A DNA stretch of 64,000 bases from Escherichia coli (GCF_030013205.1 NZ_CP122648.1); one strand, 5' to 3'; shown: positions 35,917 through 37,071, numbered from the stretch's first letter. The notes: a model not told the origin generated them from the sequence alone. Made by a program: numbers and translations.

Positions 35917-36227
35917 CAACTCGCCTTTAGCCTGAGTAAATGCGTCCTCAAGGACGGCAACGAGTCGCAGTTGCGTGCCGTCCTTTACACAGCGTGTGCA
36001 GGCAATACCTTCAGAACTTTCATTATGCCGAGCTCATACAATTTCACCATTTTGTTCAACTACAACGCTCATAATTTTCTTACACTTTTTTAATAAACCA
36101 CACCAATAACAACCATCACCGATACCTTTTGTATGCTGTTATTTTGCATTACGGTGTAACGGCAAGAGCCCCCTCCCCGCCCTGAAAGGCTCTGTGTTTT
36201 TGATGTGCGCCTGATGTGGCTCAGATA

Positions 36228-36251
36228 CAAAAAAGCTCGCAGTAGCGAGCT
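36228..36251 (-). terminator. Intrinsic terminator for the 36275-36553 gene
   Basis: Stem AGCTCGC / GCGAGCT with A-run on plus strand (T-run on minus) just below the stop. Confidence 0.6.
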
Positions 36252-36274
36252 AACAGAAAATATGAAGCATGTTT

Positions 36275-36553
36275 TTATCCACGAAGTATGACGTTGAATT
36301 CATCCATACCGACACGGCTGGCTATCTCGTTGTATTCCTCAACAAGAGCCAGCAATTCTGAATTAGCAGCCATGAACTCTTCAAAAACCTTATGGATGGC
36401 ATCACTGTTTAATAAAACAATGTTCTTTCCTGAAAGGCGATCAGGGGTAGAAAATATAACTGTCAAACGACTAAAGGCCCTGGCTCGTTCAGCATTAACA
36501 TCCTCAATACGCTGCAACAAGCTGGAGCACCTGGAAATATCATCAATATTCAC
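36275..36553 (-). CDS. Hypothetical small protein, stand-alone unit
   Basis: 92 aa ORF MNIDDISRCSSLLQRIEDVNAERARAF... with its own terminator; no family recognised. Confidence 0.5.
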   Translation of the reverse strand: MNIDDISRCSSLLQRIEDVNAERARAFSRLTVIFSTPDRLSGKNIVLLNSDAIHKVFEEFMAANSELLALVEEYNEIASRVGMDEFNVILRG

Positions 36554-37071
36554 TCTACTCCTGCCATCTGGATGATAATCATTTCACGGAGAGAAGCACT
36601 CAGAAGTACCACTGAAGTATAGCTGGCGACCAGCTACTTACACATCTATTGCCATCCTGCTGATGATAAGTCGACATTAGCCCTTCTGTCTATAAACGAA
36701 ACAAAGGATAAGTTCAGGTTTTAAACACACTGCCAGGATAAAGTATTGCATACAGTATAGAAGAGCGTTATTGAATGACATAAAAAACCAGACCTAATCC
36801 CTTATCCGGAAGATATATCAAATAAACGGGGAAAATGTATTAAGATGGCGTTCCTATTCTCTCCATCCCTGATGTCCACGTAACTCGTTATAGAATCAGA
36901 ACGCCATCTGAATACACACAAAAAAGCTGGCTTCACACCCTCCAGATGTGTGAACGCAGTGCCCGACCACGTGCTTTCGCAACCAGCACAAATCATTTTA
37001 AAGCATCGAAAAACGATCAGAATATATCAGAACTTCCTAGCATCCTGCTTGGCTTAGATATTAATCGAGGA

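Follow-up and report, generated by a model that had tools for sequence, protein, structure and literature searches.

In a 64,000-nucleotide (nt) stretch of Escherichia coli DNA (NZ_CP122648.1, assembly GCF_030013205.1; hereafter the window, with positions counted from its first letter), a cryptic, decayed lambdoid prophage lies beside tRNA-Ser and the hya operon, and on the minus strand, which is the strand of its late genes, positions 36990-36837 encode a conserved RNA element of about 155 nt. This element consists of two halves, a multi-branched, terminator-like stem closed by a run of six uridines (U6) and a long hairpin, and it sits in a 518-bp gap (36554-37071) between a gene for an adenine DNA methyltransferase and a small gene of 92 amino acids (aa). 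The interval is the variable cargo slot of the late-operon leader, running from the methylase to the lysis cassette, that is, the slot in which Shiga toxin (Stx) phages carry tRNA genes and stx; the RNA element is its only new item and is listed in no RNA catalogue. Taken as a whole, the explanation that we consider likely is that of a cargo slot holding a methylase of the M.EcoGII type, a two-part RNA element, and a small accessory gene.

The long hairpin is a conserved structured RNA, with compensatory changes across three lineages and on one strand only. An earlier note, made from the sequence of the window alone, had pointed to an imperfect 16-bp stem here (36846-36861 pairing with 36891-36906); the stem is real, but its length was understated, since the duplex is of about 23 bp and spans 36915-36837. 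None of 200 shuffles folds as well as the inverted repeat on either strand (minus strand, z = -4.2; plus strand, z = -5.3), and the energy of the hairpin amounts to -26.5 kcal/mol over 36916-36838 (z = -4.2) and to -29.0 kcal/mol for 36915-36837. Across seven distinct variants, 93.8% of the cells of its 23 pairs are paired, versus 40-52% in controls with shifted partner columns; both sides are changed in six of the pairs (11 cells), and the covariation score is attained by none of 500 shuffles. Late-strand energies range from -24 to -34 kcal/mol, with the exception of one weak variant (L004, about -11 to -14 kcal/mol), whereas the opposite strand yields -6 to -21 kcal/mol in diverged copies, and the consensus fold reaches -17.2 kcal/mol on the late strand versus -3.9 kcal/mol on the other. 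The fold holds only on the late strand because many of the substitutions yield G.U pairs, and even in distant copies, whose hairpin arms differ at many positions, the pairing is retained.

In the first half of the element, the closing stem P1 (GCUGGUU/AAGCCAGC, 36987-36981 pairing with 36932-36926) encloses a GAAA-capped stem P2 and a second hairpin, and is directly followed by the U6 run. Among 11 variants, 98.7% of P1 is paired, and the stem shows two pair changes, from G-C to A-U and from U.G to C-G; the covariation support for this branched stem is weaker than for the hairpin. In the distant copies L039 and L046, read by eye, P1 becomes ATGGCACA/TGTGCCAT or GTGGCG/CGCCAC and the P2 stems are changed as well; the GAAA loop and the U6 run are retained in all three lineages while the stems change.

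The earlier note had found no credible open reading frame in the gap, which is borne out by the annotation of the 57 E. coli genomes (of 5426 complete ones) that carry the whole stretch, none of which places a gene in it. A 64-aa open reading frame at 36996-36802, overlapping the element, is ruled out as coding because relatives carry frame-breaking indels of 1 and 2 nt, and no genome annotates it. A tRNA or tRNA-like identity of the branched stem was likewise rejected, as neither ARAGORN nor Rfam finds anything there. Rfam 15 returns nothing in the gap at E <= 1 and no family that reaches its gathering score, and its only matches on the copies L039, L046, and L036 are sub-threshold microRNA precursors on the hairpin. 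A literature search found no described RNA at this position.

With regard to distribution, the core of the element (36836-36994) recurs at about 80% identity in otherwise different leaders: behind DUF1133 Q-like genes and ahead of tRNA-Thr and tRNA-Gly in 52F4 and C5, behind methylases in RM8082 and AREA_497 (where about 790 nt devoid of genes separate the methylase from the holin), and behind Q-like or tRNA genes, with no methylase, in L002, L004, L036, L039, and L046. Frequent neighbors are tRNA-Thr(tgt) and tRNA-Gly(tcc), with the element on either side of them. A covariance model based on 11 variants scored 44 bits on a Citrobacter braakii genome and on three identical loci, of which two lie on viral contigs and one on an NCBI assembly contig; the viral contig L046 scored 41 bits. 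Scans of viral contigs, genomes, and metagenomes added two distant lineages (the Citrobacter type and L046), two closer variants (L035 and L036), and four near-identical metagenome copies, the remaining matches being due to chance; in these collections, the element is found only in Escherichia and Citrobacter-type prophage DNA. One copy (L054 600-755, 173.7 bits, equal to the E. coli-type variants L011 and L031) lies on a 2.7-kb contig of a metagenome-assembled genome labeled "Bacillota bacterium" (JAEWMQ010000075.1), which is probably a mis-binned fragment of an enterobacterial prophage. In L039, Rfam reports a second tRNA right after tRNA-Thr (2770-2850, plus strand, 41.6 bits) that ARAGORN does not call and that may be an unusual or decaying phage tRNA. 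The element is thus not tied to the methylase: it assorts independently and travels as a module.

Nor is the element specific to one antiterminator, since three different Q families accompany it (PF06323, DUF1133, and PF06530). Those families, together with the conserved pR'-like promoter and tR'-like terminator found directly after Q, rule out that it is a Q-specific pR'/qut site. It does resemble lambdoid pR'-tR' units and their short RNAs (lambda 6S RNA; StxS, PMC7547250) in being a terminator-type structure of the late leader that Q-modified polymerase could pass, but it lies 2.6 kb downstream of Q and is branched rather than a simple hairpin.

On this basis, we propose a role for each half. 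The first half, with its stem and U-run, might stop unmodified polymerase and so insulate the lysis genes, and would be read through once Q has acted. The long duplex would then form only in read-through RNA, where it might serve as a processing or stability site of the RNase III type; we hold both the insulation and the processing with lower confidence. A duplex of about 23 bp has the classic shape of an RNase III substrate, and the hairpin offers 23 pairs interrupted by one conserved C.U mismatch, with up to about 28 bp in relatives, where about 20 bp or more of near-continuous duplex is expected. In phage lambda, sib/tI works as a terminator but turns into an RNase III site once polymerase reads through it. 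Processing here would part the upstream cargo RNA from the lysis mRNA, much as sib/tI does, and the element would share with it the combination of a terminator and a long duplex found only in read-through RNA, in a phage operon under antitermination. However, the putative terminator and the duplex are here separate structures with no sequence similarity to sib/tI, and the analogy is one of logic only.

Several points weigh against this interpretation. That the methylase is silent in the lysogen, that transcription terminates at the U-run, and that RNase III processes the duplex are all inferences; the window copy of the branched stem shows no stability beyond that of its shuffles (z = +0.5); the long hairpin has no U-run of its own; and no promoter ahead of the element is shared among the lineages. 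Since the element is known from three deep lineages only, the covariation statistics rest on few independent events, and P1 and P2 had to be read by eye in the distant copies because the covariance-model alignment misplaces P1 there. The non-specific activity of the methylase is itself deduced from 85% identity to a characterized enzyme. Finally, having lost its head genes and most of its tail and lysis genes, the prophage may no longer use any of these parts in this strain.

Other readings of the gap have to be weighed against the same evidence. The independent assortment of the element is gene-like, its multi-branch architecture and GAAA tetraloop are retained while the stems change, although a plain terminator needs neither, and a U6 run directly follows its closing stem; these features would suit a trans-acting small RNA released from the late or tRNA transcript, with the branched stem as its body and the U-run as an Hfq-type 3' end, or a cis-acting RNA that alters polymerase in the manner of HK022 put. 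Stx phages are known for short pR'-derived RNAs that work as small RNAs (PMC7547250). Yet no upstream promoter is conserved across lineages, the single-stranded stretches that would serve as seeds are not conserved between them, no Rfam small RNA matches, and the element is narrowly distributed, with 57 of 5426 E. coli genomes, a single Citrobacter genome, and four metagenome contigs carrying it, so that we regard this reading as unlikely. Slightly better, though still doubtful, are in our view the chances that the element represents an undescribed regulatory RNA class of lambdoid late leaders that goes beyond a terminator and a hairpin, be it a small RNA that is released or a switch acting in cis. 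It appears improbable that the gap is nothing else than the promoter and 5' untranslated region of the 92-aa gene with recombination scars around a functionless hairpin: there is indeed a promoter-like site at 36692-36663, lambdoid mosaic junctions lie on both flanks, and the gap outside the core is specific to this phage class, but leaders devoid of the 92-aa gene still carry the core at about 80% identity, and compensatory changes and strand asymmetry reveal selection on RNA pairing. That same asymmetry leaves very little room for an inverted repeat acting as DNA, be it a protein-binding site, a recombination site, or the relic of a small mobile element. The window copy does fold about equally on both strands (z = -4.2 and -5.3), and a neighboring 73-nt linker is an ISEc20 insertion target in other phages; nevertheless, diverged copies pair through G.U in the late-strand RNA only, the other strand falling to -6 to -14 kcal/mol, and neither direct-repeat flanks nor a transposase are found nearby.

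The least credible of the alternatives, to which we grant hardly any chance, concerns the methylase and would make it and its neighbors the remnant of a restriction-modification or modification-dependent defense system, as the earlier note had entertained. It is true that the best PADLOC model for the enzyme is "Type II methyltransferase", but PADLOC reports methyltransferase models only at this locus, and no nuclease gene, such as the cognate endonuclease gene that a Type II restriction-modification system would have beside its methylase, adjoins it in the window or in the five relatives examined. Neither the RefSeq neighborhood nor PADLOC gives any hint of a nuclease or a modification-dependent system, and the flanking genes are standard lambdoid late-leader cargo. 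The M.EcoGII family has, moreover, been characterized as solitary and phage-borne (PMC5778455), and because the methylase belongs to it, the missing nuclease is the family norm and no sign of decay.

Coming back to the two-part element in its cargo slot, the assignment of the neighboring methylase to the M.EcoGII family rests on several comparisons. Beta-class enzymes are defined by a catalytic DPPY near the N terminus and FxGxG near the C terminus, with the recognition domain in between (PMC5778455), and the window enzyme follows this order: its DPPY (residues 35-38) and FMGSG (310-314) match the M.EcoGII counterparts in the alignment, on either side of the recognition domain. Its description as a beta-class methylase that lacks a cognate nuclease proved correct. 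Against the M.EcoGII sequence of Supplementary Table S1 of PMC11551740, 293 of 345 positions (85%) are identical over residues 1-344, recognition domain included; identity reaches 90.7% with L24 of the Stx2e phage phiP27, 85% with the enzyme of phage 1720a-02, a close M.EcoGII relative according to Murray et al. (PMC5778455), and 86% and 70%, respectively, with the reconstructed ancestor Anc291 and with SUPREM, two engineered ancestors that are reported to be active and non-site-specific (PMC11551740). Like M.EcoGII and M.EcoGI, which reside in prophages of E. coli O104:H4 (PMC5778455), the enzyme is a solitary PF01555 beta-class methylase on a lambdoid prophage; unlike M.EcoGII, it has 361 rather than 349 aa, and the final 17 residues are not alike. 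M.EcoGII is reported to methylate adenine regardless of sequence context, to be silent in the lysogen, and to harm cells under constitutive expression (PMC5778455), and by its similarity the window enzyme is predicted to be a non-specific adenine methyltransferase too. DNA similar to its gene occurs in 1969 of the 5426 genomes, and it is therefore a common phage enzyme, which the earlier note would have counted against its proposal, but the gap next to it is not devoid of conservation.

In the lysogen, terminators would silence the methylase, the sole trace of this silencing being the terminators upstream of the gene. Once Q makes RNA polymerase terminator-resistant, the enzyme would be expressed and replicating phage DNA would be methylated, which may protect it against the restriction systems of the next host; no nuclease partner would be needed, because the role of the methylase would be the anti-restriction protection of phage DNA. 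The methylase does have a genuinely linked gene, absent from the earlier note, which encodes a 65-aa winged-helix protein and is located about 155 bp upstream in the window and, in every phage record that both searches listed (phiP27, 1720a-02, Stx2a and Stx2c phages, cdtI, and mEp460), 150-350 bp upstream on the same strand. Its phiP27 copy bears the RefSeq name "TrmB family transcriptional regulator". A comparison of related prophages thus does reveal a conserved partner of the methylase, but ties neither the 92-aa gene nor the RNA element to it. The idea of an orphan methylase joined to a regulatory RNA or structure accordingly stands in its parts, namely a solitary methylase and, in the gap, a conserved RNA structure, but not in their linkage: element and 92-aa gene both occur without the methylase, and neither depends on it. 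The coordinates of all these features are collected in table 1.

Table 1. Features of the prophage interval and its surroundings, in window coordinates.
Feature	Positions	Strand	Evidence and remarks
RNA element, first half	36920..36990	-	Multi-branched stem P1/P2/P3, then U6 at 36925-36920; terminator-like
RNA element, second half (long hairpin)	36837..36915	-	GUAUU/AAUAC base, conserved C.U mismatch, 17-18 further pairs
M.EcoGII-family beta-class N6-adenine DNA methyltransferase (predicted specificity)	37072..38157	-	361 aa, intact; PF01555 E = 1.5e-42, residues 29-340
65-aa winged-helix (TrmB-like) gene	38308..38505	-	RefSeq WP_000917767.1; Pfam TrmB weak, E = 0.0097; phrog_331
Terminator-like hairpin	38321-38304	-	Terminator scan; separates 65-aa gene and methylase
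92-aa accessory gene, apparently of moron type	36275..36553	-	GTG start after AGGAG; RefSeq WP_001017777.1; phrog_2873 E = 9e-47
Candidate sigma-70 promoter of 92-aa gene	36663..36692	-	TAGACA-18-TATCAT; 10/12 consensus positions; consensus match only
Intrinsic terminator after 92-aa gene	36228..36251	-	AGCTCGCtactGCGAGC then TTTTTT; 7-bp stem, 4-nt loop
Claimed plus-strand terminator, unsupported	36165..36201	+	6-bp stem, 17-nt loop
Q antiterminator gene	40319-39648	-	PF06323, E = 1e-89
pR'-like late promoter	39612..39640	-	TTGCAA-17-TATATT; promoter scan, consensus match only; directly after Q
tR'-like intrinsic terminator	39535..39561	-	AAAACCCGtgaccgaGCGGGTTTTTTT; -13.3 kcal/mol, z = -2.0; about 50 nt past promoter

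The 92-aa gene, between the element and the holin region, is a real gene, with its GTG start, its AGGAG, and its RefSeq entry. Homology searches placed its product in a PHROGs family and retrieved 19 relatives among 1.84 billion representative proteins, but led to no functional family: Pfam, NCBIfam, and PADLOC return no match, and PHROGs only families of unknown function. Like the RNA element, it is not functionally tied to the methylase, without which it is found in relatives; a 40%-identical homolog occupies the same position before TerB-DUF3927-holin in another prophage, which has a different Q and no methylase, and in mEp460_ev081 a homolog comes directly after Q. The AlphaFold model (predicted local distance difference test score of 90) consists of a helix, a beta-hairpin, and a helix, so that the product is predicted to be a soluble helical-hairpin protein. 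No match at E <= 0.001 was found by fold search in the PDB or in a viral structure library, the best hits, which are not significant, being the prefoldin beta subunit (Foldseek E = 0.018) and unnamed phage proteins. Prefoldin beta shares the helix, beta-hairpin, helix topology (template modeling score of about 0.70), a shape common to any coiled-coil hairpin, but the root mean square deviation of 7-8 Å and the lack of a Pfam or sequence relationship add to the non-significant E value, and a prefoldin identity was rejected for want of significant sequence or structure similarity.

Morons are accessory genes of lambdoid phages that carry their own promoter and terminator within the late operon, and the 92-aa gene looks like one, with a candidate promoter, a real terminator, and variable neighbors. 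The promoter-like site, about 110 nt upstream of the gene, is the best match of the 5.4 kb scanned, and its first hexamer is TTGACA in strain 442/2; it remains a 10/12 consensus match only. The terminator, which the earlier note had correctly recognized on the minus strand, has all the features of an intrinsic terminator (-12.3 kcal/mol, z = -4.9, with none of 200 shuffles folding as well) and is conserved in relatives. By contrast with a moron, however, the gene follows the late direction in relatives and could be a plain gene of the late operon. The terminator lies within a linker of about 73 nt that is common to many lambdoid phages, among them Evi, pPE4, JLK-2012, and the PPompW phages. 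This linker, made of the terminator and a CACAGAGCCTTTCAGGG leader, stands in these phages just before the TerB-DUF3927-holin genes (window 36178-36250; L032 2501-2573; L033 2501-2578; L034 2501-2575). In PPompW phages, it is the very site at which ISEc20, an element of the IS110 family, has inserted, and one copy of the linker belongs to a record titled "Actinobacillus phage vB_Apl-pPE4", the late region of which resembles that of an E. coli lambdoid phage.

A second terminator, proposed on the plus strand to face the first, did not survive scrutiny: 89 of 200 shuffles fold as well (z = -0.06), the terminator scan makes no call at 36165-36201, and the site lies on a mosaic junction, so that the supposed convergent pair is one real terminator and one chance hairpin. 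In alignments, homology to relatives breaks at about 36170 and resumes near 35487, the intervening 680 bp carrying a DUF1883 gene in reversed orientation in place of the TerB and DUF3927 genes found ahead of the holin in relatives.

The identity of the prophage emerges from its neighborhood. Positions 36000-38300 of the window are 100% identical to chromosomes of swine enterotoxigenic E. coli and of O139:H1 E. coli, and RefSeq annotates the matching K_EC180 locus, in order, as the hya operon, tRNA-Ser, broken tail genes, holin, DUF1883 gene, 92-aa hypothetical gene, methylase, 66-aa hypothetical gene, Q, RusA, DUF968, and the lambdoid early region, from which the losses of head, tail, and lysis genes mentioned above are apparent. 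Read on the minus strand, the order in the window is Q, pR'-like promoter, tR'-like terminator, truncated membrane-protein gene, 65-aa winged-helix gene, methylase, RNA element, 92-aa gene, terminator, and holin-gene remains. The promoter and terminator after Q are conserved among relatives with the same Q type, with a variant terminator stem in AREA_497, and this conservation, together with the consensus match, suggests the usual pR'-tR' arrangement. After the tR'-like terminator, a 167-aa membrane-protein reading frame (38890-39393, minus strand) is a truncated version of a 237-aa protein of strain 442/2 (99% identical over 167 aa), and in K_EC180 the gene is further broken by IS1; truncation and disruption fit an ongoing decay of the prophage. 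The Phage_holin_8 gene (35082-35498, minus strand) runs directly into tail-gene fragments (tail assembly protein, J, and tail fiber) of 32859-35113, and the deletion at this fusion cost the prophage its terminase and head genes, the remainder of its lysis cassette, and most of its tail genes. Rfam also finds a full-length IS009 match (32555-32753, minus strand, 223 bits, E = 3e-55) within the tail-fiber-assembly remnant, adjoining tRNA-Ser (31976-32063), and a ParD/ParE-type toxin-antitoxin pair lies in the nin region on the opposite strand (L001 18918-19480, window about 42140-42700, the offset being due to an IS1 that the window lacks).

The cargo slot can be compared with those of relatives. 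The intact relative 442/2 reads methylase, gap, 92-aa gene, TerB, DUF3927, holin, holin, lysozyme, and phiP27 reads Q, L22, L23 (66 aa), L24 methylase, two tRNAs, stx2eAB, holin. The late leader of phiP27 has a 100% identical 65-aa winged-helix gene, a methylase that is 90.7% identical, a Phage_holin_8 holin, and a slot between methylase and holin, but this slot is filled with tRNAs and stx2e where the window has the RNA element and the 92-aa gene, and its Q is not of the type of the window prophage. On the whole, the anatomy drawn in the earlier note is largely right apart from the one spurious terminator, and most of its parts are ordinary lambdoid-prophage anatomy.

For the methylase and the small gene, little is at stake, as they are further copies of known lambdoid cargo in a dead prophage. 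Membership of the M.EcoGII family nonetheless predicts harm if the methylase were expressed outside the late program, and the 65-aa gene may control such a toxic enzyme, of a type widely used in laboratories. The RNA element, for its part, sits in the leader that controls the lysis genes and, in related phages, the Shiga toxin and tRNA cargo. Were it to represent a regulatory class, it would govern the amount of transcription, or of stable mRNA, that arrives at the lysis genes and at cargo such as tRNAs, methylases, and toxins; and a role in read-through or RNA stability would make it one more control point in the expression of late genes and of the toxin slot.

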